Notes under the pieces: model-generated | Seen by the model: the letters and a program-made list of their open reading frames with translations, nothing else | What the model was told of the DNA's origin: nothing | Databases searched by the model: none | Shown here: positions 757-55,873 of the stretch, one piece after another | Numbering within the stretch: position 1 is the stretch's first letter | Layout of the letters: every line of letters begins with the position of its first letter | Position numbers and translations under genes: made by a program | DNA from: Pelagomonas calceolata | Lineage: Eukaryota | Direction of reading: 5' to 3' | Length of the DNA stretch: 64,000 nt | NCBI GenBank assembly: GCA_918797485.1 | Contig: CAKKNE010000004.1 | Coordinates: 2,914,001-2,978,000 of the forward strand

Positions 757-776
757 CTAGTGTGTCGACACGCTAG
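757..776. promoter_or_regulatory. Recurrent CTAGTGT-N-CGCTAG intergenic motif, copy 1
   Basis: CTAGTGTGTCGACACGCTAG, near-palindromic, about 110 bp upstream of the ankyrin ATG; eight related copies in the window. Confidence 0.6.
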
Positions 777-811
777 CTCCGACCTACGACTTGATTAGAG
801 CTACTTGAGTC

Positions 812-825
812 CTAGCACCGTAACA
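812..825 (-). other. Conserved post-stop element, core CTAGCACCGTAACA, copy 1
   Basis: Identical 14-mer at 37854-37867 and 48389-48402; all three lie downstream of minus-strand stop codons. Confidence 0.55.
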
Positions 826-862
826 ATGTGCAGTACAGGAAGGTGGCTACACAAAAACAGAA

Positions 863-1591
863 TTACCCAGAACCAGCCTCGACCTCCGCCTTGCTCCGCT
901 CCATCACCCCCATGAGATCCGTCGCAGCCCTGACGACGGCACCCGGCGGCGCCTGGCCGCGGCCCTCGAGGAACTTGAGGTACGCGACGAACGCGTCGGC
1001 GGCGTCGCTCGCGCAGACGAAGCGCGCCCAGGCGTGCGGCGCGGCCGCGGCCTCGGCGCGCCGCGCGACCGCGCGGCCGAGGAGCGAGAACGTCTGCGAG
1101 TGGACCGCCATCTGCAAAAAAGCCGAGCGCCGCTCGTCGCCGTCGCAGGCGTCGCGCGCGACGGCGGGCGCCGGCAGCGCGAGCCGCACCTGCAGCGCGC
1201 GGTCCGCGTACTGGACCATGGCCGCGACGACGCTCTCGATCGACGCGTCCGGGATCGCGCCGCCGGCCAGCGCCGCCGCGAATCCAAACACCGCGCGGTC
1301 GTAGTAGCGCAGCACCGCGCGCCGGCCTGCGGCGTCGTCCGCCGGCGCGCGCGCGTCGAGCGCCACGGCCATCTTCGCGTCGCGCGTCGCCTCGAGGGCG
1401 CGGCCCCGGGCCGCCGACTTCGCGTCTCTTTCTGCGCGGCGCTGGGCCGCTTCGTCGTCGGTTGTGTCCGTGCCGTTCAGGACTTCCTGCAAAGCTTTTT
1501 CAGCGGCCGCATCGGTCACCTCTAGTGCGGCCATGGCGGCGCCCAGCTGACCTATCGGGGCGAGCAGCTCGTCCATTTGGTCGCGGTCCAT
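863..1591 (-). CDS. Hypothetical helical protein (242 aa)
   Basis: ATG-initiated ORF with protein-like composition between clear intergenics; no recognised domain. Confidence 0.65.
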   Translation of the reverse strand: MDRDQMDELLAPIGQLGAAMAALEVTDAAAEKALQEVLNGTDTTDDEAAQRRAERDAKSAARGRALEATRDAKMAVALDARAPADDAAGRRAVLRYYDRAVFGFAAALAGGAIPDASIESVVAAMVQYADRALQVRLALPAPAVARDACDGDERRSAFLQMAVHSQTFSLLGRAVARRAEAAAAPHAWARFVCASDAADAFVAYLKFLEGRGQAPPGAVVRAATDLMGVMERSKAEVEAGSG

Positions 1592-1751
1592 TGTTGTACA
1601 GGGGGCTCTGGCCTAGCTCCAGCTATGCGCTAAGGCTTCCAGCTGGACGCGGAGCAGCTAAGTAGCGTTGCTGTCGCCTGCCTGACAACGCCGAAGAGTG
1701 CGCGCTTCCTGTCCTGCCTACAAAAAGCGCCGGCGCCGTGATTTTCTCGCG

Positions 1752-1774
1752 CTAGCGACACAGTAAGACACTAG
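1752..1774. promoter_or_regulatory. Recurrent CTAG-bounded motif, copy 2
   Basis: Reverse complement reads CTAGTGTCTTACTGTGTCGCTAG; lies in a divergent intergenic. Confidence 0.6.
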
Positions 1775-1919: not shown

Positions 1920-3527
1920 ATGGCCAAGACCAGTGCTTCCGCACTCGTTTGGGCCCTCGCGGCCGCGCGCGGATGGGCGCTCGTGGCGCCGAGCGCCGCG
2001 AACCACAAGACGCGCCTGCCCCCTTTACAAATGGGCGACTGGGCCGAGGCGAACGCCGCGAAGGCGCTGGACGCGCAGAAACGCATCGTAATGAAGTTCG
2101 GAGGGTCCTCCATCAGAGACGCGGAACGCGTCACGCACGTCGCCGATCTCATAGCGTCCAAAATTAGAGAAGGATTCACTCCGGCCGTGGTTGTGAGTGC
2201 CATGGGGACCACTACGAATGAGTTAGAAAGGGCCGGAGCGTTAGCTTTGGTCGATGGCATTGTTAGAGTAGACGAGATGCGCAAATTACATTTAGAAGTC
2301 TTGGATGAGCTCGAACTCCCAGCAAACGTGGGCTATGAGGTGAGACAACTACTCAGAGAGCTCGAATCGCTCTTAGATGGCGTGAGCATGGTCAGGGAAC
2401 TCACGCCGCGAACGAAGGACCTTTTAGTCAGTTTTGGAGAAAGGATGAGTTGTCGGATTGTGGCAGGCCAATTGAAGGAAGCTCATGACATCACGGCAGT
2501 CCCGATCGAAGCCTGGAATATAGGGTTAAGGACGGAGGGCGGCCACGGCGAAGCGCGGGTCGACGAGGAGTGTTACGACGACATCGCGCGAGCGTTGCGG
2601 TCGTCCATCGTCGAGCGGAACGAGGTACCAGTTATCACTGGTTATGTAGGGCACGACGCGGATGGTAGAGTTACGACTCTCGGTAGAGGTGGTAGCGATT
2701 TGACAGCTACTACATTGGCAAGAGCAGGGGCATCAGAGACACAGGAACCGCTCTTTGCGGAGGTCCAGGTCTGGAAGGACGTCGACGGTCTCATGTCTGC
2801 GGATCCGAAAGTCGTGTCGAACTCCGTCAACGTGCCCTTCGCTACCTATGAAGAAGCGGCGGAATTAGCTTATTTCGGGGCGTCTATTCTACATCCCACG
2901 GCTCTGAGACCGGCTCAAGTAGGGCAGTGTCCCGTTCGTATCAAAAATTCGTACAACCCGGACCATCCTGGTACGCTCATTGCCTCTCCGTCGAAGATCG
3001 ACGAGGAGCGGTCGCTGAAATCGTTAGAAAGGCCCGCATTGACGGCGATCACGGCGAAACGAGGCGTGACACTCGTGGATATTAGTTCTTCAAGGATGCT
3101 GGGCCAGCCCGGGTTTCTCGCGGCGATCTTCGAGGTCTTCGAGACGGACGGGGTCTCGGTGGATGTGGTGGCTACTTCCGAAGTTTCAGTCAGTCTGACG
3201 CTCGACCCCAAAGCTCATCTCGGCGACGAAGCTAAAAGATTTTTGTCGCCCAAGGGTCTGAAGCGCCTCGAGGACATCGCGCGCGTCGACGTGCGCGACG
3301 GGCGGGCCATCGTGTCCTTCATCGCGGACGTGGCTCGGTCCACAGAGTTGATCGCGCGCGTCTTCACGGTCCTCGCGCAGCGCGGAGTGAAAGTGGAGAT
3401 GCTGAGCCAGGGCGCGTCCAAGGTCAACATTTCATTAGTGGTCTTGGACGCCGACGCCGAGGAAGCTCTACGCATCATCCACGACGAGTTCTTTTCGACA
3501 TCGAAGGAGGCGGTCGCGTCGCGCTAA
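1920..3527 (+). CDS. lysC: Aspartate kinase, monofunctional, probably plastid-targeted
   Basis: VMKFGGSS, VVSAMG, TTLGRGGSD, WKDVDG and ELAYFGASILHP motifs; two C-terminal ACT domains (VDVVATSEVSVSLT, MLSQGASKVNIS); signal peptide plus transit-like leader. Confidence 0.95.
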   Translation: MAKTSASALVWALAAARGWALVAPSAANHKTRLPPLQMGDWAEANAAKALDAQKRIVMKFGGSSIRDAERVTHVADLIASKIREGFTPAVVVSAMGTTTNELERAGALALVDGIVRVDEMRKLHLEVLDELELPANVGYEVRQLLRELESLLDGVSMVRELTPRTKDLLVSFGERMSCRIVAGQLKEAHDITAVPIEAWNIGLRTEGGHGEARVDEECYDDIARALRSSIVERNEVPVITGYVGHDADGRVTTLGRGGSDLTATTLARAGASETQEPLFAEVQVWKDVDGLMSADPKVVSNSVNVPFATYEEAAELAYFGASILHPTALRPAQVGQCPVRIKNSYNPDHPGTLIASPSKIDEERSLKSLERPALTAITAKRGVTLVDISSSRMLGQPGFLAAIFEVFETDGVSVDVVATSEVSVSLTLDPKAHLGDEAKRFLSPKGLKRLEDIARVDVRDGRAIVSFIADVARSTELIARVFTVLAQRGVKVEMLSQGASKVNISLVVLDADAEEALRIIHDEFFSTSKEAVASR

Positions 3528-4190
3528 GTAAGAGAATGTATAGATTAGTACTGCCACGAAGATGAATCCGGGAAGGGACACGAAGTACCGCCTCCTCGCT
3601 CTTTTTTGTAAACGTGGGAGGACGCCCCTTTCCAATAGTGCGTGCAGCGCGACTTTGGAGGTGTCGTTTTGTAGAGCGACGTCGCATCTATCCAATTTCA
3701 GCGCGAGGGGCATCTGCGCGTCGATGCGCTTCTTTGCGGCCTCTTCATCAATGTTGTCTCTATTCATAACGCGTCGCAGCTGCGTCTCGGGCGCCGCGGC
3801 GACGACAATTGATAAAGCGCAGATTTTGTCGAGCTTGAACTCGAAGAGCAGCGGCGCATCCAGAATCACCAAAGACGTGCCGACACAGAAGTGATAGCCG
3901 ATGGCCTGGATCAGCGTTTTCGCAATAAAGGGCCGCATGACGGCGTCGAGCTTCCTTCTTTTCGCGACGTCGCCGAAGATGGCCGCGCCGAGCGCCGCGC
4001 GGTCCAATGTGCCATTCTTCACGACGCCGGGGAAGGCCCGGTCGAGCGCCCGCGTGCACCGCGTGCCCGGTTTCTGCAGGTCGTGCACGAGCTGGTCGCA
4101 GTCGATCACCTCAACATTTTGGGAGCGGAACCAGGCGGTGACCGTGGACTTGCCCGTGGCTATTCCTCCGGTTAAGCCGACTAGCAGCAT
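3468..4190 (-). CDS. coaE: Dephospho-CoA kinase with C-terminal transmembrane helix
   Basis: MLLVGLTGGIATGKSTV P-loop, LDRAALGAAIF, ILDAPLLFE and RIDAQMPL; ATG at 4190; the stop overlaps the end of lysC. Confidence 0.92.
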   Translation of the reverse strand: MLLVGLTGGIATGKSTVTAWFRSQNVEVIDCDQLVHDLQKPGTRCTRALDRAFPGVVKNGTLDRAALGAAIFGDVAKRRKLDAVMRPFIAKTLIQAIGYHFCVGTSLVILDAPLLFEFKLDKICALSIVVAAAPETQLRRVMNRDNIDEEAAKKRIDAQMPLALKLDRCDVALQNDTSKVALHALLERGVLPRLQKRARRRYFVSLPGFIFVAVLIYTFSYLARRDRLLRCRKELVVDDA

Positions 4191-4376
4191 CTCTGCTGGC
4201 TGCTTGTGTGCTGCGGAGTGTTGCTGAGTGAGTGCTGCACAGGCGGTGTGAGGTCTTGTCGATGGCGTGAAGCGCTGCTGACCGGTCGACAGGGTCCAGT
4301 ACGCTTCAGAAACGATTCGAATCGTCTTCAAGGCCCACCGTTATAGCCCAAAAACCAAGGGCCTGAGCTCAGTGAT

Positions 4377-4396
4377 CTAGCGTACCGACACACTAG
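4377..4396. promoter_or_regulatory. Recurrent CTAG-bounded motif, copy 3
   Basis: Reverse complement reads CTAGTGTGTCGGTACGCTAG; divergent intergenic between coaE and the dynamin gene. Confidence 0.6.
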
Positions 4397-4630
4397 CTCA
4401 GTTTTCATACTAGAAACCTGTTTTGGCCGCGGCATTTGCGCGGAGCCCTCCACCGTGTGGCAGACCCTCGCGAACACCTGGCACGCTGTGAACGACGCAG
4501 CGGTTGTAGCCGTCGCAGCGAGACGCCTCACGCGGTCCACAAAGACCAGCGCGAGCCGCATAACTCCTGTTCTACATCTAGTCGTTGGACCCGCGATCGG
4601 GACCCACAGCCCCCGTTAGGCAAAAACACA

Positions 4631-7080
4631 ATGGCCACGCCCCAACAACCGACGCGCGTTGTCGACGGTGCCGTTGTCGACACGCTCGCGCGGCTCCAGC
4701 AGCTCGCCGCGACGCTCGGCGCCACCGACGCGCTCGATTCGCTACCCCAGATTGTGGTCTTAGGCAGCCAATCAGCAGGCAAGTCCTCGACGATCGAATC
4801 GTTGGTAGGATTGTCCTTTTTACCTCGAGGCACGGGCATCGTGACGCGCTGCCCCCTCTTGTTACATTTAAGGCCGAGGGACACGGGGCCGGCGGATTAT
4901 GGGGTGTTCGGGCATGGGGGCGGCGCCCCGATCAGTGACATGGAGGCTATCAGAGCGGAGATCGAGGCGCAGACGGCGAGATTAGCTGGCGATGAAAAAG
5001 ACATTTGTGCTACTCCTATTGTTTTGAGATTGCACGTGGCCGGCGCTCCCTCCTTAACGTTGGTGGACCTACCCGGTGTCACAAGGGTTCCAGTCCGAGG
5101 CCAGCCCGACGATATTGGCGAGAAGATCAAGCGGTTGTGCCAGCAGTTCGCGCGGAACCCACGAGCCGTATTACTTTGTGTGAGTGCGGCGAACGCTGAT
5201 TTGGCTACGTCCGAGGCGTTAGTGTTGGCGAGAGAAGTAGATCGGGCCGGCGATCGCACCATCGGCGTGCTCACGAAGACCGACCTGATGGACCCCGGGA
5301 CGGACTGCGCGTCGATTCTGCGAAACGAGGTCTTTCCTTTGAGATTGGGCTACGTCGCTGTGGTTTGTAGGGGCCAGCGCGATTTGGACGAGGGCGGGAC
5401 TGTTGCGGCAGCGCAATCCAGGGAGCGGACGTTCTTCGCGAATCATGAAGTGTACGGTGCGCCTCGCCATCGAGAGTTGCTGGAACGGAGCTGCGGCATC
5501 GCCGTGCTGGCGCAGAAGCTCTCAGCTTTGTTAGTGGCAGCTACTCGAGAAGCGGCGCCTCATTTAAGACAGGCGTGTCGGGCGCGGCTCGACCAGGTCG
5601 AGAGCCGTGTGGAAATCACACCATCGACGCGACGTTGTCGCCGTGACCGCGTCGGTTCGATGGAACCTCACTGGTTGAATTTACACAGGTGGAGAGCCGC
5701 GCGGCGCAGCTGGGCGAGGAGGACTCGACGGGCGATCCCGCCCGAGTCGTCCTAGAGGCCGTTTTATTATACGCGAAGACGTACGCGACGCTGGCGCGCG
5801 ACGGGGCCGTCGGCGACGCGCGGTGGCTCGGGAATAGCGGCGACGCCGAGCTAAGGGGTGCTGCTCGACTCGCCCACGTCTTTGAACGCGTCTTCGCGGC
5901 GTCGCTGGCGAAGGCCGATCCGTTGGACGGTATTTCGGACGACGACGTGCGAGCCTGTCTGCTGGCGACGTCGGGTGCGTCGCCCGCGCTCTTCGCGCCC
6001 GAAAAGGCCTTCTACGCCTTGGTGCGGCAGCAGATTCAAAGACTGAGGGACCCGGGCCTGGAGTGCGTCGACCTGGTCTGCAGGGAATTGGAAAATTGCG
6101 CGGCACACGTGGCCGAGCCGCCCGTGGCGGACCAGAACGACGTGGTAGGCGCGGTGCCGGCGCCGTTAGCTCGATTGCGCCGGGCGCCGCGACTGCGAGG
6201 CGCGGTCCGCGAGGCCGTCGTCGAGATTGTACGGAAGGAAAAGGACGGCGCCAAGGAACGGGTCGCAGATTTAGTGGCTTGTGAACTCCAACACATCAAC
6301 ACGCGGCATCCGGACTTCGTGGCGGCTCTGTCGGACGTCACTGTTAGATTAGGTTGCCTCTCGGCGCCGTCGGCGGACTTCTCCGACGACGACATCGAGG
6401 ATAGAAGGATCGAGGAGGAGGAGCTCGAGGACACTTCCCCTGCTGAGCCCGAGCGGCGCGGCTGGTTCGGCGGGCTGCGGGGCGACTCCGTGACGCCGCC
6501 GCGGCGGTCGAATCGCCGCGAGTCGTTCGTGCTGAAGGATCAGCTCAAGCCGCGGCCCTACCAGAAGCCGCGGAAAGTCAAAGCGGATCCTTCTCATGTG
6601 GATGTGGTCAAGGCTCTAGTGCGGGCCTACTTCTCCGTCGTGCGCAAGACCTTCTGCGACCTCGTGCCCAAGATTGTGATGACCCACGTTGTCCACAAAG
6701 TTGAAGAGAAGATGCAGGCGACCCTCGTGGGTAGAGTTGCGGGCGCGGAGCACGCCGCTCTCTTGGAGGAGGACGCCGCCACCGCCCAAGAGAGAAGGGA
6801 GACGGCTCGGGCGCGCGACGGTTTGAGGGATGCGCTCCGCTTGCTCGACGACGTCCAGCACGCGCAGACGCCCGTGCGACACAGGGAGCGCGCGGACTCG
6901 CTCGAGGGCGGCTCGAGTCCCGCGCCGCTCACGCACAACAATGTTTCTACAAGAAGGCGGGACCGGTCGCCGGGGCCGCAGGGCTTCGCGCCTTCTCCCT
7001 CAAAGACGCCGCCGCGGAAGGGTGGCATCTCGGGCCTCGTCGCCGCGCGCAAGGAGAACTTCATGCGTGGGCGGCGCTGA
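4631..7080 (+). CDS. Dynamin-related GTPase (Dnm1/Vps1-like); exons 4631-5596 and 5689-7080
   Basis: G1 GSQSAGKSS, LPRGTGIVTRCP, G3 DLPG, G4 TKTD, middle domain (HINTRHPDF) and GED (AYFSVVRKTFCDLVPK); removing intron 5597-5688 joins the two ORFs in frame. Confidence 0.93.
5597..5688 (+). mobile_element. Short introner-derived GT-AG intron (92 bp)
   Basis: Element CCGTGTGGAAATCA...TTGAATTTACACAG (5605-5688) with imperfect TIRs; 8-bp TSD GTCGAGAG/GTGGAGAG; internal CCATCGACGCGACG shared with the long copies. Confidence 0.85.
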
Positions 7081-7144
7081 TCCCTCTATTCCCTTCTCCC
7101 ATCGAGTAAGAGTATTGCTTATGAACAGGGGGTAATAGTATGTA

Positions 7145-9038
7145 TCAGAAGTCCTCCGGCGCCACGTGGACGACCTTCGTGTTTTCGAACTCCTCCTCCG
7201 CCATCATCGCGCCGAAGCGGTCGAAGTAAACGATGACGACTATCATGTAGCACAGCGGCAGAGCGATCATCGCGCCGAGGTCGAGGTAACCCGCGACTCG
7301 ACGGGCAACAATCTCGGACGAGTCGCTCAGCTCGTGCTCCGTTACCAAGTCCTCCAGGCGCACGTTGGCGCCGAGACTCGCACCGCCGCCGCTCGGGGCC
7401 TCCTGGGCCTCCTCGTCGTCGCCGCCGGCTTCGGTGCCAGGGTCCGCAGGAACAACGCGGCGCCTCAGACCGGGACTGCTTAGCATGAGCGTCTCAGCGT
7501 CGCTACTCACATCTTTCCTATCGATGGCCGCTTGGACGCGCCGCAGGACGAAGTCCTTCCGGCGTTTTCTCTCGAGCTTCACAAAGGGCGCGAGCATGAG
7601 TCCAATAATTGGCGAGTGATAGGCCGCGAGACCGTCCGTCTGATAGATGTCTCCCACCAAATCATACCAGACTGGCAGCGTTATGCTCTGCCCGTGAAGC
7701 GATTCCAATTTCTTTCGGAGCTTGAAAAACTTGGCCGAAGGCAGTCCCAACTTTTTGACCGCCTCTTCGACCTCTTTCTTATCGAGCACGCCGCTGTGGT
7801 CGTGGTCCGCCTTGACGAAGGCGCTCACCAGCTCATGCTCGCTCATCACGCCAGTCGAGGTCTTCACGCCGTAGAGCGACACCGACAGCACGGAGACGGC
7901 GAGTGTAGCCCAGGAGAACGAAAACGAGATGACGTGGAGCATGGAGATGATGGTCATATTACCCGTCTTTGGCAGCACCTCGAACGCGACAATATAGATC
8001 GCGGCGCTCGTGAGCAGACACGTGATACCTGCGTGACGTCGGCGGGTGACGCCATCCCCGCGAGACGTCAGCAATTTTAATTTCAAGGACGCCGGGTCGC
8101 ACCGAGCGAGATCCGCTCCCCAGACTGGGGGTTCGCAACGAATGCCAGGAATCCCGCCAACGTGGTCAGTATCATCGGCACGACGAGGCCGTAATTGTAT
8201 GTTTCGCTGTGGCGCCGCATTCGAAACTTGTACTTTATTATCGGGTAGGGCTCAGGACAGCAATCGTAAAAGCCATCAACAGCCGCGGTCCGTACCTCCA
8301 CTAAATCGAACTCAGGATTCGGCTGGTACGACTCAGCGAATTTGAAGGGTATGGGTTCGTCTCCCCCTCTAGGCTTGATGTCGACCTGTAAGCCGTGCAT
8401 ACTCCAGCTGCCGAATTCGAACGTACATTCCTGCTGATCGAAGGGGAACGTCCGAGGCTTCATGGGGCAGGGTAATCTCGATTCGACGGGCACGGACCGG
8501 GCGACATAGCCGCTCGAGTAGACGTTCGGCTGGACGCCCCCAGGCACCTGAAATACGCTTTCCACAGCATCGTAGATGATGGTGTCTGGGATCCAGATCT
8601 GCTTGTGCTCGTCGTTGCCTGCGTGGATCAGTTTTTTCACGCCGACGAGCAGACGCGAAGTTAGTTCTACGCCGCGGCGGTACCGAAGAACGTGAGTTCC
8701 GTGATGCCGCCCCAGTCCGCAGGGTCCCACGCTAATCGAAGATCCGTCCACGAGTGCCGCCACCAGGAGAAGAATTGGATCTCCTGGTTAGTGGTGTCGA
8801 GCTTTTGGAATTGTTGCAGTGCCAACTGCACCGAGACGAGCGCTCCGCGCTCCGAACCAAAGCTCGGCGGTTGTACCGTCATGTCATAATTGGCGAGCAA
8901 GGCCTGTTTGAGCAGGGTCTCGTTCCTTTGCTTGTAGCATTCCGCATTTGTGCAGGTGGTATCGAGAGCTAGGCCGACGGGTCCCCCAGCATGCGCATGG
9001 GGCAGCCCCAGAAGGAGCAGCGCCCAGCTGGTCGCCAT
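7145..9038 (-). CDS. Cys-loop pentameric ligand-gated ion channel, alpha-nicotinic-like, with EF-hand; exons 9038-8684, 8618-8103, 8028-7145
   Basis: Signal peptide; WIPD; Cys-loop CPMKPRTFPFDQQEC; loop B FGSWS; loop C YDCCPEPY; M2 SGERISLGITCLLT; four TM segments; EF loop DHDHSGVLDKKE; collinear with the paralog at 48475-50288. Confidence 0.93.
8029..8102 (-). other. GT-AG intron (74 bp), absent from the paralog
   Basis: GTGCGA...CACGCAG; removal restores ISLGITCLL as in the paralog. Confidence 0.88.
8619..8683 (-). other. GT-AG intron (65 bp), absent from the paralog
   Basis: GTACCG...CACGCAG; removal gives FFGNDEHKQ versus FFGHDEHKQ in the paralog. Confidence 0.88.
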
Positions 9039-9442
9039 GGTGTGCCAAGGGGCAGGATCCCACGTTTTTGACAGTTTTAGACGCAGCCTCCCAGAACACA
9101 CTCGCGAATCCCACGCTTTGACGACAGAGTTTGAGAGTTTGACGACAGGAATGGCGGCGCTGATGCGAGAGCGTGCGCGTGCGGGTCGCGCCGCGCGTAC
9201 ACGCGGCTTCAGCAAGTGTCAGCGAGGGTGATGTGATGATACGTACCTATGGAATGATGAGGATTTAAGGGAGCTGTTTGAAATGGCGCTGAATTGGCGC
9301 TGCACAAGCTGCCATTGCGGCCGCCACGACGAGAGGTGTGAAGCCGCGCGGGCAGCATAAGTGCGCTGCCCGGACAGCGTTTCATCGAGCGACGCGACGA
9401 ACCAATACGACTTTGCAATTGTGATATGGCAGCGCATGGATA

Positions 9443-15775: not shown

Positions 15776-15807
<32 letters not shown>

Positions 15808-33968: not shown

Positions 33969-33974
33969 CAACAG

Positions 33975-37868: not shown

Positions 37869-37939
37869 GACTGACGTAGCCAGTTTAGGCATGGCGAGCC
37901 GCCAGGAGAAGATCAACCTAGAAAACTCTTAGTACGGCC

Positions 37940-40447: not shown

Positions 40448-40477
40448 ACGGCCTAAAGGGCCGCTAGAAGAAGTTAC

Positions 40478-43573: not shown

Positions 43574-43707
43574 GACGGCCGCAGCGGTGCACGAATGGCT
43601 CCATTGTTGCGCGCGTCGGGCCAGTAGCATTGTGAAGCGGCTATGTATTCACGGCAGAGGTATCCACGGCTTCCATGCGGCGCAAATCGACGAGTTAAAA
43701 CGTTGAC

Positions 43708-43726
43708 CTAGCGGCAGAGGTACTAG
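43708..43726. promoter_or_regulatory. Recurrent CTAG-bounded motif, copy 6 (degenerate)
   Basis: Reverse complement reads CTAGTACCTCTGCCGCTAG; divergent intergenic. Confidence 0.45.
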
Positions 43727-43876
43727 CCAGTTTCGTGTTTGTGTTTTCGAAGGCCAGCACGAGACGCAGGCACGCCGGGCAGCCCAACGCGAAGTCAAGC
43801 ACGTCCACACGCCCCATTGCTGCGCGGGAGGCACCAGTGGGCCGCCTTGCATCCCTAGTGTACCAGCGGGCTGCAT

Positions 43877-43908
43877 AGGACACGCATCCGAAAGGACACG
43901 CATCCGAA
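43877..43908 (+). repeat. Exact 16-bp tandem duplication abutting a start codon
   Basis: AGGACACGCATCCGAA twice, immediately followed by the ATG at 43909. Confidence 0.85.
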
Positions 43909-44232
43909 ATGAAGCCCTCGTCGGCCCTCATCATCGGCGGCGCCTACCTCTCCTACACGATTGCGTCGTGGTCGCCGGAGCGCAGGGAAGCCGTGGTCCA
44001 AATGATAAGAGACGGCGTTTCCGGAGCGGTCAACGCGTTCCTCGAGGACCCGGTCGGGTGCCTGCGGCGGTTCTGGGACGAAAAAAAGCGGTCGCCGATG
44101 CTCCTGCTGGCCCTCGCGTCGAAGCTCATGGCCGACAACCTGCGGCGAAAGAGGCTGAAGAGGGAGGCCGCGGCCGCGCCGGCCGCGACCGCCGCGAAGC
44201 CGGCGGCGCCGGGCAGGAAGAAGCGGAAGTAG
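43909..44232 (+). CDS. Small hypothetical protein with N-terminal hydrophobic segment and basic tail
   Basis: 107-aa ATG ORF with GC3-rich codons. Confidence 0.65.
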   Translation: MKPSSALIIGGAYLSYTIASWSPERREAVVQMIRDGVSGAVNAFLEDPVGCLRRFWDEKKRSPMLLLALASKLMADNLRRKRLKREAAAAPAATAAKPAAPGRKKRK

Positions 44233-44484
44233 TCGGGCCGGCCCCGAGTCGTATAAAATAGTGTCAATAGATCGCTCGGGCCTAGGCTAATAAAACGGGT
44301 TTTGCCGGCCCTTTTTTTTTGCGCAATCGAGCGCAAATCGACCTTGCTGGGATCAATTCTTAGCGTTTCGTATACCAGAGATCGCAATTCTTCGCTGCCG
44401 CCATCGGTGCCACTTCGCAGGAGGCTTGGGGGGCGCCAGGGTAGGCTGCAGCCCTCAGCCAGACTGCTGGGACTACGCATCGAA

Positions 44485-46830
44485 ATGCAGCGGCCAGACG
44501 AAGACGACGACCTGGACCTACCGCGACGGAAGCGCCCGCGCGCCGCGGCACCGCTCTATTACTCCGAAACTGACGTCTTCCGAGGCGCCGACGCGCGCGC
44601 GGTCGATGCCGCACTCGCCGCGCTACGAAGGGCTGCGACAACGGTCGAGGACGGGCCGATGCGATCCGTGGCGATCGCGCCGCTCGCCGCGACAGCGCCG
44701 GGCGCCGGGGCGGTCTACGGCGCCCTGGCCGACGCATTCGCGGCGAGCGGAGCGCCGCGGCCGCGGCGGCTCGCTACGGCGCAGTTAGCCGTCTACGAAA
44801 CCGGAGACCATTTCAACACGTGGCATGTCGACGAGACAGAAGACGAAGGGCGTCTCGCCCTCGTCGTCTTCCTGAGCGATCCCACAGACTACGAGGGCGG
44901 CGAGTTCGACGCCGAAGGCGACGTCGTACTACCAGCACGACCGCCGGCGCGCAGCTTCGTCGTGTTTGACGCGTCGCGCCTGCGTCACCGCGTGCGCGCC
45001 GTGCGCCGCGGCCGCCGCGAGGCGTTGCTGTGTTGGACGGCTTCGGCGCACGACCCGGCGCCGGCCGTCGCCGCGCCGCCGCCGACGCGCGCCGCGCCGG
45101 CGACCGTGAAAGTGATCGTGTGGGACTTGGACGGCACGCTCTGGCACGGCGCGCTGGAGGACGACGACCGCGTCGAGCCGCGGTGCGCGCTCGTAGATCT
45201 CATCGGCGCGCTCGCCGACCGCGGCATCGTGTCGAGCGTGTGCTCGCGCGCCCCGCGGGCGGCAGCCGAGGGCATGCTCGACACGCTCGGCGTGCGGGAA
45301 CTATTGGTCTTCAACGAGTACGACGTCATGGGTTCCAAGGGCGCGCGCGTCCTCCGGACGCTCGAGGCGATGCACCTGTCGCCGCGCCACGCGCTGTTCG
45401 TCGACGACGAGGCGAGCAACCGCGCCGACGTCATGAGCCGGTGCGAGGGCATCGGGGCGCTCGCGCCCGATGATTTAGAGGCGCTCCTGCCGGTCGCCTG
45501 GGGCGCGCCGGACGCTCGCGAACGCCTGGCGCGCTACAAAGTCCTGGAGCGCAAGCACGAAGCGCGGCAGCCCGAGGAGGAGGACGACGCGTTCCTGAGA
45601 CGCTGCGCCATCGTCGCGACCGTTAGCCGTGTCGCGGCGCTGGACGGTGACGCGGACCGGCTCGTCGAGTTGTTACAGCGATCGAACCGACTCAACTACA
45701 CGAAGGACGTCGACCGGCCGGACGCGACCTGGGACGTGCTCGACGTCGCTGCGGGCGCTTACGATAGCTACAAAGACGAGCCCGGCGAGCGGATTTGTTG
45801 GAAGGTGACGGTGAGGGACGCGTTCGGCGAGTATGGGGTGGTGGGCGTTGTCGCGGCGAGTCGCACCGGTGATGCCTGGCGGCCGCGGCACTTCACGTTC
45901 AGCTGCCGCTGCGCGGGCATGCGCGTCGACGCGGCGCTCGCGGCGTGGCTCGTCGCGCAGTTGGATGCGTCGGCGCTCCCGGCGGCGGCCGAGGGGCTCC
46001 TCGCTGTCGACGCGTCGGCGGTCACCATCGTCGTCGATGACGAAGCGCTAGCGGCGCCACCGGTAACACACGCGCGGCGCGCCCTTTTACGCGGCTGGTG
46101 CGCGACGCAGCAGCTCGCGCCGCTGTTGGACGCGTCACCGACGTGCGTGCCTTCGCGCTACGCGGCGACGCGCTTCTCGTCCGTGCACTTCCTTCGCGCG
46201 TCCGCGCGCGACCCGCGCCTCGCCGCCGCCGCAGCCCGCTCGCTTGCGGCGGTCGACGCGGCGGCGACGGCGCCCTCGAACGATCTGCGGTCCTACGACG
46301 TGGTCGTCCAGGACTGCGAGGTCGACGCGCTCTGGCCGGTCACGTGTGGCTTTCCGGTGGATCTTGCTCACACTGACGTCGCGTGCGCCCCGGGCCTCGC
46401 CGACGCCTGGGCGTCTCTCTGGCGCCGGGCCGTGGCGCCGCCGCGCGACGCCGTCGCCGCGGAGTTCGGAACCCCCGCGGATCTCTTGACGCCGGCGGCG
46501 ATAGCCGACGACGCGCGCTGGCTCCGCGCCCAGGTCGCGCCGGGTGCCGGCTTAGTCTTGCTCCTCACGCCGGATTTGTGGGACCTAGGCCTCGCGGCGC
46601 CGGGCTGGCGGGAGCGGCTGGAACAGATCCCGGCGGCGCTCCGCGCGCGGCTCTCTGAAAGGCTTCGGCAGGTCAACGCGGCGGTCTCCCGCGTCGCGGC
46701 GGATTTGCCGAACACGGTCGCCGTGGACCGGACGGCGCTGCTCCGGCCCGGCGAGGTGCAGGAGCACACGCACGTCTGCCGCCGCGCCCAGGTCGCGGTG
46801 GCGGACCGCGTCAACGAAGCGCTTTTGTAG
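44485..46830 (+). CDS. Fusion of 2OG-Fe(II) oxygenase, FkbH-like HAD-IIIC/GNAT-like domain and an SGNH-like C-terminus
   Basis: WHVD...YEGGEF...LRHRVRAVRRGRREALLCW; KVIVWDLDGTLWHG, LFVDD, ELLQRSNRLNYT, VRDAFGEYGVVG, FTFSCR. Confidence 0.85.
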   Translation: MQRPDEDDDLDLPRRKRPRAAAPLYYSETDVFRGADARAVDAALAALRRAATTVEDGPMRSVAIAPLAATAPGAGAVYGALADAFAASGAPRPRRLATAQLAVYETGDHFNTWHVDETEDEGRLALVVFLSDPTDYEGGEFDAEGDVVLPARPPARSFVVFDASRLRHRVRAVRRGRREALLCWTASAHDPAPAVAAPPPTRAAPATVKVIVWDLDGTLWHGALEDDDRVEPRCALVDLIGALADRGIVSSVCSRAPRAAAEGMLDTLGVRELLVFNEYDVMGSKGARVLRTLEAMHLSPRHALFVDDEASNRADVMSRCEGIGALAPDDLEALLPVAWGAPDARERLARYKVLERKHEARQPEEEDDAFLRRCAIVATVSRVAALDGDADRLVELLQRSNRLNYTKDVDRPDATWDVLDVAAGAYDSYKDEPGERICWKVTVRDAFGEYGVVGVVAASRTGDAWRPRHFTFSCRCAGMRVDAALAAWLVAQLDASALPAAAEGLLAVDASAVTIVVDDEALAAPPVTHARRALLRGWCATQQLAPLLDASPTCVPSRYAATRFSSVHFLRASARDPRLAAAAARSLAAVDAAATAPSNDLRSYDVVVQDCEVDALWPVTCGFPVDLAHTDVACAPGLADAWASLWRRAVAPPRDAVAAEFGTPADLLTPAAIADDARWLRAQVAPGAGLVLLLTPDLWDLGLAAPGWRERLEQIPAALRARLSERLRQVNAAVSRVAADLPNTVAVDRTALLRPGEVQEHTHVCRRAQVAVADRVNEALL

Positions 46831-47028
46831 TAACGTGAGATTTGTTGTGCTTTTGCTTTGCTTTGCTTAGAGCTAGGCCGCCTAGCCACCACGTGCGACC
46901 GACGCGGGGCCCTCCAATCGCCCCGAGTGTTAGCTCGGAGGGCGGCGACGGCCGGCGGAGGGGGTTGTTGGAATGCCACACGACGTCGCCGCGGCCGCCG
47001 ACGAGGAAAAAAATAACAAGATAGCAAA

Positions 47029-48156
47029 TTAGACACTCCGCGACGCGCCGAATAAATCGCCCACGGCGCCCTCGACCTCGCGCGCGCGCGCGCGCGTCAT
47101 GCCCACGGTCTGCTCGCCGCTCGCGTCCTCGAGGTTCAGCAGGTCGTGGGACGGCCCCTCCGACGGCAGCACCCGGCCGTGCGTCGGGTGCCACGGCGGC
47201 AGCGTACTAAAGACGCTCTCGCGCTTCTCGAGCGCCCAGGACGTCGGCACCTGCATGTACCTCTCCAAGAACCTCCTGACAAAGACGTGCATCGCCGGCG
47301 GCCGCGCGTCGTTGTGGTCCCCTTCTACCGACAGGATGAACTTGTCGCCGGCGTAGGAGCCGTGGAGCAGCTCCGAGTGCTTGTTCGCGATGAACGAGTC
47401 GCCCTTGACGACGCAGAATAATGCTGGTACGTATAATTTCGGCGTGTGGTCGATGGCCGAGATGTCGTTGATGTCGATCTTGGCTCTCGATCTAATGGTC
47501 CTTCGGACGATCTGGAGCATGCCGCTGACCGCGAACTTTGGGATTTTTGTGGACGTCTGCTCCGTGGCCCGCTCTACGAGCTCTTCCGCGAGTAGTTTGA
47601 GGGAGGCAAAGGGCGAGTCCAGGACCATCGCGTCGACCATATTATCCTCGTCGGCATATAACAGAGCGGTGACGGCGCCCATGCTTCTCCCCCAGAAGGC
47701 TATTGTCGATGTCTTACCTTCCGCCCGCAGATAGGTTACTACGGCTCGACAGTCTAATCGTTCGTTGGCTCCCAACGTGACGTACTCGCCGTCTGACAAC
47801 CCGCTCCCCGCAAAATCAAAGGACACGACGGCCACGCCCAGCGACAGGAGTGTCCCGAGCTGCGGGATCGCCTCGAGCCGCGCCGACGCGTTGCCGTGCA
47901 TGAAGATAAGGGTAGGTACCATCGGCGGCCTTTGTTCCGCGGCCCAGCGCGAGCAGACGAGGCGCTCGTCCTTGACGTTGTGGACCTCGAAGTCCTCTCT
48001 GATAAAGGTTCTTCCTAAAAACTCGAAGCGCCGCGGCCCGAGGTGCCGCTCGTCGTACGTCGTCCGCGGCGGCCGGATGATCGCGCAGACGACCTGCTCG
48101 TAGGCCGCCTTGGCCTGGTCGATGATGCCGGGGGTCCGCTCTGGTTGCTCGGCCAT
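47029..48156 (-). CDS. Alpha/beta hydrolase (YqkD-like)
   Basis: IIRPPR, FMHGNAS, FDFAGSGLSDGEYVTLG, nucleophile elbow WGRSMG, VLDSPF, EGDHND. Confidence 0.92.
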   Translation of the reverse strand: MAEQPERTPGIIDQAKAAYEQVVCAIIRPPRTTYDERHLGPRRFEFLGRTFIREDFEVHNVKDERLVCSRWAAEQRPPMVPTLIFMHGNASARLEAIPQLGTLLSLGVAVVSFDFAGSGLSDGEYVTLGANERLDCRAVVTYLRAEGKTSTIAFWGRSMGAVTALLYADEDNMVDAMVLDSPFASLKLLAEELVERATEQTSTKIPKFAVSGMLQIVRRTIRSRAKIDINDISAIDHTPKLYVPALFCVVKGDSFIANKHSELLHGSYAGDKFILSVEGDHNDARPPAMHVFVRRFLERYMQVPTSWALEKRESVFSTLPPWHPTHGRVLPSEGPSHDLLNLEDASGEQTVGMTRARAREVEGAVGDLFGASRSV

Positions 48157-48337
48157 TTGTGTTTTGTGGCAGTCTTTTTTTGGTTCGCCTCACAGCAAGC
48201 TCTCTGCGCCTCGTGCGCGGCGCTTGCTGCCGACAGCTGCTCTTGCGCGGTGCCAAGCACTCTCGCAGCCGTTTGATCGGCCGCGTAGGCGCGCGGGCGT
48301 GCAACACTCTGCTCGTTTTGCCTAGGCTTGCCTCTTG

Positions 48338-48357
48338 CTAGTGTCTACATACGCTAG
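48338..48357. promoter_or_regulatory. Recurrent CTAG-bounded motif, copy 7
   Basis: CTAGTGTCTACATACGCTAG about 180 bp upstream of the hydrolase ATG. Confidence 0.6.
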
Positions 48358-48368
48358 CTACGCCCTGC

Positions 48369-48403
48369 AGGGGCTCCGCCCACTAGTCCTAGCACCGTAA
48401 CAT
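48369..48403 (-). other. Conserved 35-bp post-stop element, copy 3
   Basis: AGGGGCTCCGCCCACTAGTCCTAGCACCGTAACAT. Confidence 0.65.
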
Positions 48404-48474
48404 CGACGCCCTGCAGGACGAATCTACTAAGATTATACGAGCAGGGGGGTGTATCGAAGGAAGTGTCGGAAGTG

Positions 48475-50288
48475 TCAGAAGTTCGCCGGTGCCACGTGGT
48501 TGATCTTCGTCCCCTTGAACTCCTCTTCCTCCGTCATCGCGCCGAAGCGGTCGAAATAGACCTGCGGGGGAATCGGGTTGAAGGAGAGAAGTTGCGCCGA
48601 GAAATGACACGGGGCACGACGATGACCACGATCATGTAGCACAGCGGCAGGGCGACCATCGCGGCGAGGTCGAGATATCCCGCGACGCGCCTTGCGACGA
48701 TTTCCGACGAGTCGCTCAGCTCGTGGTCCGTGACGAGATCTTCGAGGCGCGCGCCGCCGAGGCCTTCGCCCGGGGCCTCTTCGTCGCTGCCGCCAGCTTT
48801 TGTGCCGGGTTCGGGAGCGACGGCTTTCGTCGACGGTTGGCGGCGCCTCAGGCCCGGACTGTTCGACGAGTTTGCTTCCGACATGGTGCTTTCGCTGAGG
48901 TCCTTCTGGTCGTTGGCCGCCTGGACCCTTCTTAGCACAAATGCCTTGCGTTTGCGCCGTTCGAGCTTCACAAAGGGGATGAGGATGATCCCGACGATAT
49001 ACGAGTGATAGGCCGCTAGGCCGTCCGTCTCGTAGATGTCGCCCACAAGATCGTACCAGACCGGAAGCGTTAATCGCTGTCCGTGGAGCGAGTCCAGCTT
49101 CTTTCGTAGTTTCTGTAGCTTAGCTGGTGGCAGTCCTAACTTCTTGACCGCATTCTCCACCTCTTTTTTGTCGAGATCGCCGCTTTCATCGGTGTCGGCC
49201 TTCACGAACGCGCTGACCAGCTCGTATTCCGACATCACGCCAGTCGAAGATTTCACGCCATAGAGCGATACGGATAGCACGGACACGGCGAGTGTCGTCC
49301 ACGAAAACGCGAAAGAAAGAACATATAGCAAACTAATAATCGTCATATTACCTGTCTTCGGCAGCACCTCAAACGCCACAATGTAGAGCGCTGCGCTTGT
49401 GAGCAGACACGTGATCCCGAGCGAGATGCGTTCCCCTGATTGTGGGTTTGCCACGAACGCCAGGAACCCTGCGAGCGTCGTGAGGATCATGGGCACGACG
49501 AGGCCGTAGTTATACGTCTCGCTGTGACGCCGCATTCGAAACTTGTACTTTACTATCGGGTAGGGTTCCGGACAGCACCCGTAAATGAAATCAATAGCTG
49601 CAGTTCGTACCTCCACTAAATCGAACTCGGGGTTCGGTCGGTACGAGGCAGCGAGGGTAAAAGGCGCGGGTTCGTCTCCCCCTCTAGGCTTGATGTCGAC
49701 CTGGAAGCCATGAGTTGACCAGCAACCAAATTCGAATTCACATGTCTGCTCGTCGAAGGGAAACGTGCGCGGCTTCATAGGGCAGGGTAATCTCGTCTCG
49801 ACAGGAACGGATTGCCACACGCCGCCGCTCGAGTACACGTTAGGCTGCACGCCGCCTGGTACCTGAAACACGCTTTCTACCGCCTCGTACACGATTGTGT
49901 CCGGGATCCAGATCTGTTTGTGCTCGTCGTGGCCAAAAAACGTTAACTCGGTGATACCGCCCCAATGATCCGGATTCCACGCTAATCGAGGATCCGTCCA
50001 CGAGTGCCGCCACCACGAGAAGAATCTTATCTCTTGATTCGTGGTATCGAGCTCTTGGAATTGCTGCAGCGCCAACTGAACCGAGACGAGTGCGCCGCGC
50101 TCCGAACCAAAGTGGGGTGGTTGTATCGTCATGTCGTAATTAGCGAGCAGCGCTTGTTTGAGCAGGGTCATATTACGCTGCTTGTAGCATTCCGCATTTG
50201 TGCAGGTAGTGTCGAGGGCCAGACCGACTGGGCCTGCCGCGTGGGCCAGTGGAAGCGCGACGAGGATTAGCGCTGCCCAGCCCGCCAT
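48475..50288 (-). CDS. Cys-loop ligand-gated ion channel paralog 2 with EF-hand; exons 50288-48621 (or 48618) and 48561-48475
   Basis: CPMKPRTFPFDEQTC, FGCWS, YGCCPEPY, SGERISLGITCLLT and EF loop DTDESGDLDKKE; splicing restores the tail VYFDRFGAM...HVAPANF matching paralog 1. Confidence 0.93.
48562..48620 (-). other. GT-AG intron (59 bp, or 56 bp with donor at 48617), absent from paralog 1
   Basis: Pyrimidine-rich ...TTCCCCCGCAG acceptor; removal restores homology with 7145-7235. Confidence 0.8.
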
Positions 50289-52512: not shown

Positions 52513-52534
52513 CTAGTGTGTTACAGGCCGCTAG
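52513..52534. promoter_or_regulatory. Recurrent CTAG-bounded motif, copy 8
   Basis: CTAGTGTGTTACAGGCCGCTAG, 21/22 identical to copy 4; divergent intergenic. Confidence 0.6.
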
Positions 52535-52770: not shown

Positions 52771-54063
52771 ATGCCTGAGGATGCCCCACCCCCGCCACCG
52801 GCCGCGGACGCCGCGGAGCCGATCCCGCTCGACGAGACGGCGCTCACCGCGCTCGGGACGGTGTCGCCGCGCAAGCAAGCCACAATCCTGGCCAAGCTCG
52901 CCGCGAAGCGAGCCGAAGTCAAGAACCCGTCGGCCTACGCCGTGCGCTCCGTCGAGAACGCGAGGAGAGAGGAGGCCCGCCACGTGCCGACCGGCACCGT
53001 ATACTACGTGCCGTTCTACGCCGACCAGGCCCCGAACGAATACGCGGAACCGCCACCGGGCTTCGAGCCGCACCAAACGACGACGCAGGACGAGTGGCGC
53101 GACTGGGACGAGGCCGACGCGCGCGCGTTCGCCGCGCTCGACCCGAAAGCCGCGGCGGCGCTGCAAGCCCTCCCGCCGCCGACGGCGGCGCGCATTTTGT
53201 TGAATCTTCGGCGCCGCGGCGGCGTGCGTAATCCCTCAGCCTACGTGATGAGGGCCATCATGAACGACCGCGCGGGCCTGGATCCGCGGCGCCCGTCGCT
53301 CGGCGACATCGAGGAGGTGCCGCGCCAGCTCGCGGATCTCGCGGTCGCGGACCTCGCCTCATGTCTGGAATGTGACGACGTCGCGACGTGCCAGCGGCGG
53401 GGCGCCGTCGACGCTGCGTTGCGCGACGCGCCGGCGCGCGCCGAGGGCTGCTCGCTCGTCTTCGCGACGCCGGGTTCGGCGGCGGTCCACGCGGCGCGCT
53501 GCGCCGCGCGCTGGCGCGGGCGTCGCCCGCGGCCGGTCGTCGACGCGCCGCGGCACGTCGAGCCGCCGGCGCCAGCCGCCGGATCGCTGGTCTGCGCCGG
53601 GGCCGACTGCACGGCGGCGGACCAGGTCGCGTGTGCGCGCCGCAGCCGCGTCGCCGCGGCGCTCGCCGCTGTCGGGGCGCAGGCCGGCGCCAAGGACTGC
53701 GCGCTCGTCGCCGGGGCAGCCGCCGTGGACCCGGCCGCGCTCGCCGAGGCGCTCGCCGAGTTACCCGCGGGCGACCGCGCAGCGTTAGCCGTCGCGGATG
53801 ATGAATTAGCACGTGGCGTGGCACTCGTTCAGCAAGTACAGCACTACTTCGCGCCGGCGAACTTCGCCAAGGACACTTACCTGAAGAGCCTGATGGACCT
53901 GGAGGGCTACGTCGACCTCGCGGCGCTCGCCGCGTTCCCGCAATTAGCTGCAATGACGGCTGGCGTCGACGAGCTCGCGCGCTTCCTCACATACTCGCGC
54001 CTCACCGAGCTCGACCCCACGCGCACCAAGGTCCGGCCGCGCCCGCGCGCGGCGGCGGCCTGA
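52771..54063 (+). CDS. La-motif (HTH) RNA-binding protein with two N-terminal NPSAY helical modules
   Basis: VQQVQHYFAPANFAKDTYLKSLMDLEGYVDLAALAAFPQL is a La motif; VKNPSAY and VRNPSAY resemble hnRNP-Q acidic-domain-like modules. Confidence 0.82.
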   Translation: MPEDAPPPPPAADAAEPIPLDETALTALGTVSPRKQATILAKLAAKRAEVKNPSAYAVRSVENARREEARHVPTGTVYYVPFYADQAPNEYAEPPPGFEPHQTTTQDEWRDWDEADARAFAALDPKAAAALQALPPPTAARILLNLRRRGGVRNPSAYVMRAIMNDRAGLDPRRPSLGDIEEVPRQLADLAVADLASCLECDDVATCQRRGAVDAALRDAPARAEGCSLVFATPGSAAVHAARCAARWRGRRPRPVVDAPRHVEPPAPAAGSLVCAGADCTAADQVACARRSRVAAALAAVGAQAGAKDCALVAGAAAVDPAALAEALAELPAGDRAALAVADDELARGVALVQQVQHYFAPANFAKDTYLKSLMDLEGYVDLAALAAFPQLAAMTAGVDELARFLTYSRLTELDPTRTKVRPRPRAAAA

Positions 54064-54332
54064 AATCGCATCGCTCATCGTCCATCGAATTGTCTATCGC
54101 ACGCGCGTCGTATCTGCGCATCTGTCGTCGTCGTTTTCCTGTCGTCCTGTCGTCGTCTAAGCATCGTTGCCTGTAATTGAAAGAGACGATTAGGGATATT
54201 TACACACGTTATCTGGATGATACAATGAGCACAACGTCGAGGCGACACGTGGGCACGTTGGTCCGATAGTTCGATGGGATAAGATAGGGTCGATGTTCGA
54301 TCGATGTTCAGTCGATGGAGTTGTCGATGGAG

Positions 54333-55646
54333 TCAGCGGCTCGACACCGCCGGCCGGTCGAGCTCGGCGACGCAGACGTCGCGGTGGCGCCCGCCGAGCG
54401 CGAACATGAGCTCGTGCCAGAGCGTCTGCGCGCGATCGGCATGCCTCGCGGCGGCGAGCGTGACGGTGTCCGCGCAGGCGACGGAGTCGTGCACGCCGGC
54501 GGCGACGTGGCGGGACAGTTCGCCGGGCGCCCACTCGTAGCGGCCGACGAAGAAGGCGAAGTCGTCGGCCTCGGCCTCGCCGCTCGCGACCAACTTCGCC
54601 GCCGCCGCTGCACCGCCAACAAATACGCCGCAGCCCGGCGCGAGCTCGCGGGCGCCGGGGAGGCCGGCGACGCCGTGGACCACGACGGCGCCGCCGGTAC
54701 CCGCGCGAGCTGCGTCGCCGCGCCGGCCCGCGAAGACGGCCACGCGATTTCCGAACGCGCGGTCGAAAGACTCGAGCCCCACCTCGTCGCCGTTCTTCGC
54801 GAGCGCGGCGCAGAGTGACGCGCTGAGCTCGCGGCTGCCCTCGAGGCGCGCGTCGACGCCGCGACCGAGCGCCACGCCGGAGCTGCCCCGCGCGTCGTCG
54901 TGGGTCAGAAGCAAGACGACTTCGTGCCTCGCGTCCAGACAGCGGCGGTGCGCGTCGAGGAAGGCGACGTCCTCGCGCTCGAGTCTGCGCGGGTCCGCGG
55001 ACCCGACGGCGACGACGCGGCGCAACCGGTGCCGCAAATAGCGCTGCGCGTCGCGGTAGCGGCGTTTGTTCAGGCATGCGGGGGGCTCGCCGCAAATTCG
55101 GGCCACCTCCCTCGCCGGCACGCAGAACTCGCGCGCCGCAGCCATCTCGCGCCGCGTCCGCTGGCGCCGGCCGTGCGCGCCGACCAGCGCTGCCCAGGGC
55201 AGGTCGTCGCGCAGGAGCTGTGTCTCGAATGAGCTGCGGAGCAGCAGGCCGCCGGCCTCGGCGCGCGGCGTTGCGTGTGCCCAGCCCCCGACACGCGCGG
55301 CCGCCCATTTTTCTGCGCGCCCGCGAGCGGCGCCGTCGCTCTCGCCCGTCGTCGCGAGGCCTACGGCGCAGAGCCGCGCGCGGACGTCGCGCCATTCGCT
55401 ATTCGGCGCCTCATGCGATGGTGCGTGCGCGGGTGGCTCCAACTCCCAATCGTCGTCGTCGTCGTCAGCGGAGAGCGGCCGCGCCGCGCGCGCGGCGGCT
55501 CGCGCTGCCATCTCGAACGCCTCGTCCTCGTCGACTGCCGCGCGTGCCACAGTCCTCCCGAGCCGCCACGGGCCCGCGCCGCCGGGCCGCAGGGCGCTGC
55601 CTGCGTGCAGCAGGGCCACGACGAGGCCCAGCGCGCGGGGCGGCAT
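54333..55646 (-). CDS. YqgE/AlgH (DUF179)-like protein with signal peptide
   Basis: WRDVRARL, VVLLLTHDDARGSSGVAL, FAFFVGRYEWAPGEL, LWHELMFALGG. Confidence 0.8.
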   Translation of the reverse strand: MPPRALGLVVALLHAGSALRPGGAGPWRLGRTVARAAVDEDEAFEMAARAAARAARPLSADDDDDDWELEPPAHAPSHEAPNSEWRDVRARLCAVGLATTGESDGAARGRAEKWAAARVGGWAHATPRAEAGGLLLRSSFETQLLRDDLPWAALVGAHGRRQRTRREMAAAREFCVPAREVARICGEPPACLNKRRYRDAQRYLRHRLRRVVAVGSADPRRLEREDVAFLDAHRRCLDARHEVVLLLTHDDARGSSGVALGRGVDARLEGSRELSASLCAALAKNGDEVGLESFDRAFGNRVAVFAGRRGDAARAGTGGAVVVHGVAGLPGARELAPGCGVFVGGAAAAAKLVASGEAEADDFAFFVGRYEWAPGELSRHVAAGVHDSVACADTVTLAAARHADRAQTLWHELMFALGGRHRDVCVAELDRPAVSSR

Positions 55647-55851
55647 CCCTGCGGCTTCTCTCTGCTACCCACAGCACAGCCTGTCCTTCAGTAGTGTCCA
55701 ACGCCCATGCACTGCCTTCACCCTTTGTTCGCCTTGACCACTGTCTTGAGCTAAATGAGTACTCTACACTCTGCTAAGTTGGCCCCACACGGCGCTCTAA
55801 GCGCTATCAGCTACGGACACCGCACGCCGTCAAGTGCTTTTGCTGGGATGC

Positions 55852-55873
55852 CTAGTGTCTTACTGGCCGCTAG
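55852..55873. promoter_or_regulatory. Recurrent CTAG-bounded motif, copy 9
   Basis: CTAGTGTCTTACTGGCCGCTAG, 21/22 identical to copy 4; about 200 bp upstream of the AlgH-like ATG. Confidence 0.6.

Follow-up and report, generated by a model that had tools for sequence, protein, structure and literature searches.

A CTAG-bounded motif at gene junctions of Pelagomonas calceolata: a possible copy-spread site for a protein resembling a general regulatory factor

The pelagophyte Pelagomonas calceolata has a genome reported at 32.4 Mb, with 16,667 genes and 63.6% GC (PMC9481584). In a 64,000-nucleotide stretch of this genome (contig CAKKNE010000004.1, positions 2,914,001 to 2,978,000 of the forward strand), referred to here at its full length as the window, a short motif with CTAG at both ends recurs between genes. 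A protein from the window has its nearest named relatives among other pelagophytes. The gene map of the window was made by hand from open reading frames (ORFs) and Pfam families, a family being found for 19 of the 34 ORFs. A sequence-only reading of the window had listed nine copies of the motif, and their coordinates and strands are correct in every case. Six of the nine occupy gaps between divergent genes, as had been claimed. These lie at 1752–1774 (minus strand, 23 base pairs (bp), upstream of a gene for aspartate kinase), 4377–4396 (minus, short class, between genes for dephospho-CoA kinase and dynamin), 32328–32349 (plus, the exact consensus 22-mer), 35383–35403 (plus, a 21-bp T variant), 43708–43726 (minus, 19 bp and degenerate, as described), and 52513–52534 (plus, a G variant whose locus is also present in wild DNA, as L116, with 85% flank identity). 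The other three are in tandem gaps, at 757–776 (plus, the short or 20-bp class), 48338–48357 (plus, short class), and 55852–55873 (plus, T variant, followed by the start of an extended-subfamily flank). A tenth copy, degenerate and 18 bp long, lies in a divergent gap at 59679–59696 on the minus strand and had been overlooked. One full copy each is found in seven of ten divergent gaps, three of nine tandem gaps, and none of eight convergent gaps.

The recurrence is far beyond chance, with eight matches to the pattern CTAGTG-N5-16-CGCTAG in the window against 0.02 expected, a number that none of 100 shuffled sequences reached. Three copies lie within one position of the consensus 22-mer, as reported (0, 1, and 1 mismatches), and all ten fall within the intergenic 12% of the window, leaving coding DNA free of them. 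The tetranucleotide CTAG is itself concentrated there, 52 of its 97 occurrences being intergenic, at 6–8 per kb compared with 0.8 per kb elsewhere. The copies were also said to stand about 85–250 bp upstream of a start codon. They are indeed close, with a range of 77–272 bp to the nearest ATG on the present gene map; the largest distance falls to about 112 bp if an upstream in-frame ATG at 32215 is taken. The absence of copies from convergent gaps is likewise real, but carries no information because the eight gaps sum to just 653 bp (0 of 10 copies, P = 0.48).

The motif is 18–23 bp long, occurs in both orientations, and has a CTAG-to-CTAG spacing of 14–19 bp, mostly 16–18 bp. Selection of copies by the left half alone avoids circularity when the right half is tested. 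By this route the right half is present at all eight window sites that carry the left 9-mer (chance 1% each), with 0 differences in 48 right-half positions compared with 20 in 56 middle positions (Fisher p = 1e-6). With an 11-mer anchor, all 12 copies examined (eight from flanks not selected by the scan and four from the window) end in CTAG, and ten of these in CGCTAG. In the unselected flanks taken separately, a terminal CTAG is present in 12 of the 19 sites found by the 9-mer anchor and in all eight found by the 11-mer anchor, compared with 1% by chance. Because the right half is invariant while the middle varies, the motif likely has the fixed contacts and free spacer of a two-part protein site, a pattern unlike even decay, to judge from the letters of the copies.

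Metagenomes contain the strict pattern at a minimum of 121 loci. Seven loci were removed as duplicates or alleles (L022, L034, L069, L090, L104, L113, and L115), leaving a working set of 117 hits in 114 loci; fractions of hits given here and below refer to the matches listed. Flanks are mostly unrelated between these loci, with a bias to GCTTG at positions -5 to -1 and to CT at +1 and +2, and approximately background composition beyond. If the window is typical, its four strict copies scale to about 2,000 near-consensus ones in a whole genome (550–5,200), and its ten copies, by the looser definition, to about 5,000 (2,400–9,300); all such genome-wide counts are extrapolations from the window. 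Three patterns gave no matches in viral contigs, nor did these contigs contain an autonomous partner with the same ends. Prokaryote genomes gave four matches (L122–L125), each within an alga-like piece at a contig end, the remainder of the contig having prokaryote-like ORFs, and three of these genomes hold one to three loose matches each. Because the contig ends are alga-like, and because L124 and L125 share one algal locus, these contigs of metagenome-assembled genomes appear, on ORF sequence and composition, to be chimeric assemblies with Pelagomonas-like ends. Ten proteins from motif loci were checked and showed no other species with the motif; nine are in the protein collection searched, four belong to clusters with a named P. 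calceolata member, and the L079 protein belongs to a cluster of two members.

The position of the motif relative to transcripts can be judged from stranded RNA reads over 30,600–49,600, in two runs of one sample, with RNA-seq 5'-end pile-ups as a proxy for transcription starts. Each of the three read-covered divergent-gap copies has such a pile-up nearby. At 32289 on the minus strand (26 of 35 and 23 of 36 molecules) the motif is 39 bp away, at 35459 (5 of 23 molecules, in a single run) the distance is 56 bp, and at 43755–43760 (both runs) it is 29–34 bp, in gaps of 601, 307, and 278 bp, respectively. The three mapped transcripts start beyond the motif, which itself lies outside them. No 5' end is listed for the copy at 48338. 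The constrained ends and these three loci bear out the earlier proposal of an element with two half-sites near transcript starts, and the purely intergenic placement of all ten copies agrees with it. Across the 117 hits, GC and CpG reach a minimum at the motif, and T-A skew changes sign across it.

Surrounding genes were called with a coding model trained on window genes, which in cross-validation placed 122 of 149 pieces correctly and none on the wrong strand, one training gene being out of frame. Both sides could be called for 48 of the 117 hits, giving 24 divergent, 19 tandem, and 5 convergent gaps, the last five remaining tentative after inspection by eye. This split departs from random gene orientation (p = 2e-4). 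It matches each gap class's share of gap length, with no enrichment over other non-coding gaps (p = 0.45), and the promoter-side specificity proposed in the sequence-only reading was therefore not borne out. Because the gap classes follow gap length, the motif marks gene junctions in general. In tandem gaps the motif lies between stop and ATG (the ATG being located in 11 of 19), with the upstream stop (28–266 bp, one case ambiguous) as near as the downstream ATG (55–291 bp), and the two orientations number 10 and 9.

Several features suggest that copies of the motif arose from one another. Among the listed strict hits, 63 of 120 are one identical 22-mer, and a 1-bp deletion is associated with the T variant (9 of 17 compared with 16 of 103, p = 0.0015), as in a homogeneous family with subfamilies. 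Identical flank 6-mers exceed those in column shuffles on both sides. A shared right-hand extension passes the filter in 14 of 123 hits, compared with 6 of 123 for a control on the left side, where the range searched was shorter; about 11 of the 14 are convincing by eye, with ragged ends and lengths of up to about 60 bp. An exact insertion of 10 bp, beginning with CTAG, sets L069 apart from its allele L004 at the left edge. A 6-bp satellite unit, GGATGC, which abuts the left CTAG of the last tandem-gap copy (55846–55851, plus strand) and is polymorphic between L004 and L069, adjoins the left edge of 10 of the 123 hits and, inverted, of 4, compared with 1 on the right. The right-side CTAG is doubled in 5 of 123 hits. 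In L003 and L064 homology begins right at CTAG, where oppositely oriented motif-like copies stand, the alignment of the motif itself being ambiguous. Six allele pairs with 81–99% flank identity all retain the motif, and none of the six has an empty site for the whole unit, in a sample biased by the finding of both members through the motif. The suggestion that the motif is a relic of a tiny mobile element that targets promoters was probably right in part, its copied origin agreeing with the subfamilies, shared flanks, and 10-bp insertion, and its promoter targeting finding no support. Two further loci have unusual surroundings. In L013 (3700–4500) the neighbours of the motif and its extension are CCCTAA repeats, telomere-like but degenerate, and a further CTAG-bounded 22-mer that L046 also carries, and in L030 (3859–4341) two inverted motif copies about 440 bp apart surround an AT-rich stretch, the flanking genes being unrecognised by the host coding model.

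The motif is accompanied by related modules. Module 2 has in common with it the core T(G/C)TTAC..GCTAG, of which a 14-mer is exact in the three window copies, all on the minus strand. The core at 812–825, 37 bp past the stop of the minus-strand gene at 863–1591, has the first motif copy 35 bp from it; the copy at 37834–37867 occupies a tandem gap without a main-type motif, with RNA 5' ends at 37759 (9 of 16); and the full form at 48368–48402 is high-copy in a DNA run from the same organism. The module is oriented, with a sharp TGT end that falls at 48402 in the window, and is tandemly doubled in L047. In six of seven copies it follows a same-strand stop by 37–131 bp, and in six of seven a main-type motif lies within 128 bp after it. 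Its summed depth in the DNA run is about 790,000 compared with 470–620 for single-copy contigs, a ratio of about 1,400-fold that is not a copy number. Unitigs break at the motifs of 32328 and 35383, and several link the motif to module 2 over 13–35 bp. Module 2 is a candidate terminator or element end. Module 3, a CTAG-containing repeat at 46858–46893 (plus strand) in a convergent gap, reaches a depth of about 250,000 and has matches, in both directions, among RNA reads that come from many other loci; it is possibly an element of 3' untranslated regions (UTRs). Half copies of the motif are present as well. A right-half-only copy that has lost its left CTAG lies at 32416–32431 (minus strand) in the same gap as the consensus copy, and the 5' UTR of the gene at 43909 contains a left-half-only copy (43849–43861, plus strand), which the 6-bp satellite unit precedes in inverted form.

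With confidence about evenly balanced, the motif is best read as a copy-spread, selectively kept site for a putative protein resembling a general regulatory factor. In this scheme a sequence-specific protein would read both halves, its binding accounting for selection on the ends, and once bound would hold open the border where two transcription units meet. Its action may resemble that of yeast general regulatory factors, fixing where transcription starts on one flank or on both and stopping read-through from an upstream gene. The copies would derive from one ancestral sequence, spread by a small mobile element or by gene conversion and then kept by selection; such spread may be why the spacer, subfamilies, and flank haplotypes are shared. 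The two alternatives offered by the sequence-only reading, a bound element and a mobile-element relic, are probably both partly true. Several observations weigh on the other side. No binding protein was found, and 17 of the 27 window gaps lack any copy. With the looser 9-mer anchor the right half is missing at 7 of 19 flank sites, all of the GTGT class, for which decay, a further subfamily, or chance may account, and half copies exist (32416, 43855, and L010). The motif is absent near an RNA 5' end at 42427, and pile-ups of RNA-seq ends are not cap analysis of gene expression (CAGE), two of them (32671 and 41928) lying inside coding sequence; both runs come from one sample, and end positions are from the listed part of the table. 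Periodicity of CpG at 130–260 bp around the motif is absent (p = 0.59), so that the nucleosome phasing implied by a positioning element was not detected from CpG spacing. At least one side lacks a gene call for 69 of the 117 hits, and the 24, 19, and 5 classified gaps fit the 28, 16, and 4 expected from window gap length (chi-square p = 0.45).

The main competing account, which is possible but doubtful, is a functionless micro-element or transposon footprint that inserts at CTAG, or at the TA within it, where intergenic chromatin is open. It would duplicate its target and leave remnants of 14 bp, the 6-bp and 0-bp forms coming from further visits. Such an origin would explain the direct repeat of CTAG at both ends, the insertion separating L069 from L004, the edge units and doubled right CTAG, the opposed copies at the start of homology in L003 and L064, the subfamily structure, and a distribution that tracks gap length. 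Old neutral relics would nevertheless be expected to decay evenly, yet the ends are intact and the middle diverged. There are moreover just 14 bases inside the CTAGs, without an inverted repeat, and the allele pairs, though a biased sample, show no empty site for the whole unit in any of six. Use of CTAG at stop codons, as by bacterial CTAG MITEs (miniature inverted-repeat transposable elements), is not evident, 10 of 217 sides passing a loose filter and none convincingly, and no transposase was seen by eye in the ORFs of six odd loci, the whole genome being outside that search. A bolder and rather improbable proposal combines mobility with function, as a self-propagating promoter cassette in which an 18-bp CTAG-bounded unit would be inserted, inverted, or copied at CTAG by a nuclease or recombinase and the same protein, domesticated, would set starts and gene borders.

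It is also unlikely that the motif is a boundary or termination element whose bound protein blocks polymerase or separates genes, nearness to 5' ends then following from short gaps. Both orientations occur in tandem gaps, five of 48 gaps were called convergent, upstream stops are as close as downstream ATGs, and module 2 is co-oriented with the upstream gene in six of seven copies, all as a boundary would have it; half of the classified loci are nevertheless divergent, where no transcript ends, and the 5' ends stay within 29–56 bp of the motif though the gaps span 278–601 bp. Still less probable is a hotspot of recombination or breakage, cut or targeted in meiosis or repair, at which repair from other copies would homogenise the 22-mer and shuttle bits of flank. 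The beginning of L003/L064 homology at CTAG and the raggedness of shared flank haplotypes are in keeping with this, as is L042/L113, in which the two sides of the motif contrast, one having about 96% identity and the other far less. A change of this kind is missing from three other allele pairs, however, and coding versus non-coding constraint could explain the L042/L113 contrast. A hairpin or cruciform acting through DNA or RNA structure has very little probability. The sequence-only reading remarked that the ends can pair, and they are near-complementary, some short-class copies being near-perfect palindromes (-9.2 kcal/mol as RNA for the copy at 757); they pair only via a G-T wobble, though, and the consensus reaches just -0.5 kcal/mol as DNA, its other strand not folding. 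A cruciform is unlikely because folding is too weak. The T-G mismatch is moreover fixed, being kept rather than repaired, Rfam gives no match at gathering score across the 64 kb, and the motif is outside the mapped transcripts.

The window contains other repeats and genes of note. Paralogous genes for Cys-loop ligand-gated ion channels at 7145–9038 and 48472–50288 share about 80% DNA identity, the former carrying an EF-hand-like insert and the latter being barely expressed. A 5,110-codon ORF at 10487–25819 looks by eye like a dynein heavy chain of divergent sequence, with EF hands at its N-terminus, and the minus-strand gene at 35180 has a short imperfect tandem duplication in its 5' region (35190–35320). 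Two 204-bp repeats that are 91% identical (29730–29933 and 57823–58026) interrupt ORFs and match pieces of L004, L019, L021, L031, and L035; these are probably Introner elements.

Literature searches, mostly in openly accessible journals, found no report of the motif and no pelagophyte promoter or boundary element, and supplements of genome papers might list the repeat among unclassified families. The words "motif", "intergenic", and "CTAG" are absent from the main text of two pelagophyte genome papers, and a third paper, in the portion available, mentions only low-GC regions of P. calceolata. The kind of element is known; the present member and its modular CTAG-bounded anatomy appear to be undescribed. 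If the extrapolation holds, the motif occupies about one third of the intergenic gaps of a highly abundant oceanic picoeukaryote, and would provide a handle for promoter definition, for expression vectors, and for the search for the main chromatin-opening factor of the alga. It is constrained and copy-derived at once, and makes a compact case for testing the passage from repeat to regulatory site in a genome poor in other repeats. Were the self-propagating cassette to prove true, the regulatory punctuation of a major ocean alga would, across thousands of genes, be the work of a mobile micro-element.

Comparison with known repeats gives partial likenesses. Pelagophyte Introner elements are high-copy interspersed repeats of the same genome (PMC9481584). 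In contrast to these elements, which are intronic and about 210 bp long, the motif is 18–23 bp, intergenic, and without noticed shared sequence; an intronic location is not supported for the tandem cases, which lie between stop and ATG. Miniature inverted-repeat transposable elements (MITEs) and footprints of elements that target CTAG or TA (IS630/Tc1-mariner, IS5; RUP) resemble it in CTAG ends, both orientations, subfamilies, and small insertion polymorphisms. The IS630/Tc1-mariner and IS5 families prefer CTAG or TA targets. Unlike MITEs, the motif has just 14 bp between its CTAGs and lacks a terminal inverted repeat; neither an empty site nor a clear insertion at a stop codon was seen, and its ends are better conserved than the middle. 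The 14 internal bases begin with TGT and end with CG, giving no inverted repeat beyond a wobble pair. Helitrons insert at A-T, so that a T comes after their terminal CTAG, and carry a palindrome of 19 bp that lies 11 nt upstream (PMC4778049). The terminal CTAG is shared with the motif, but a T follows the motif's CTAG in just 4% (forward) and 2% (reverse) of 117 hits; the flanks are near background beyond about 6 bp, with no shared hairpin evident. Because the Helitron and inverted-repeat tests fail, the motif is filed under neither Helitrons nor MITEs.

Regulatory sites provide the other comparison. The sites of yeast general regulatory factors (Reb1, Abf1, and Rap1) are likewise intergenic protein sites at the borders of transcription units. 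These factors open nucleosome-depleted promoters through short sites with known proteins, the Abf1 site being bipartite, and in one yeast study they reportedly restrict ectopic initiation. They also form a roadblock to RNA polymerase II (PMC5052057). Unlike yeast sites, the Pelagomonas motif is 18–23 bp long and CTAG-bounded, has one dominant spacer and subfamilies, and is known from sequence and RNA ends. The RE1 (NRSE) site of REST has two half-sites under strong constraint and a weakly constrained spacer of variable length (PMC3320604). Fixed halves with a loose spacer are common to RE1 and the motif, no likeness of sequence being claimed. REST represses neural genes in animals, and RE1, by the title of one paper, is said to have spread through transposon-mediated duplication. 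The Pelagomonas motif differs from RE1 in that its halves are near-inverted and its sites stand beside genes of all sorts.

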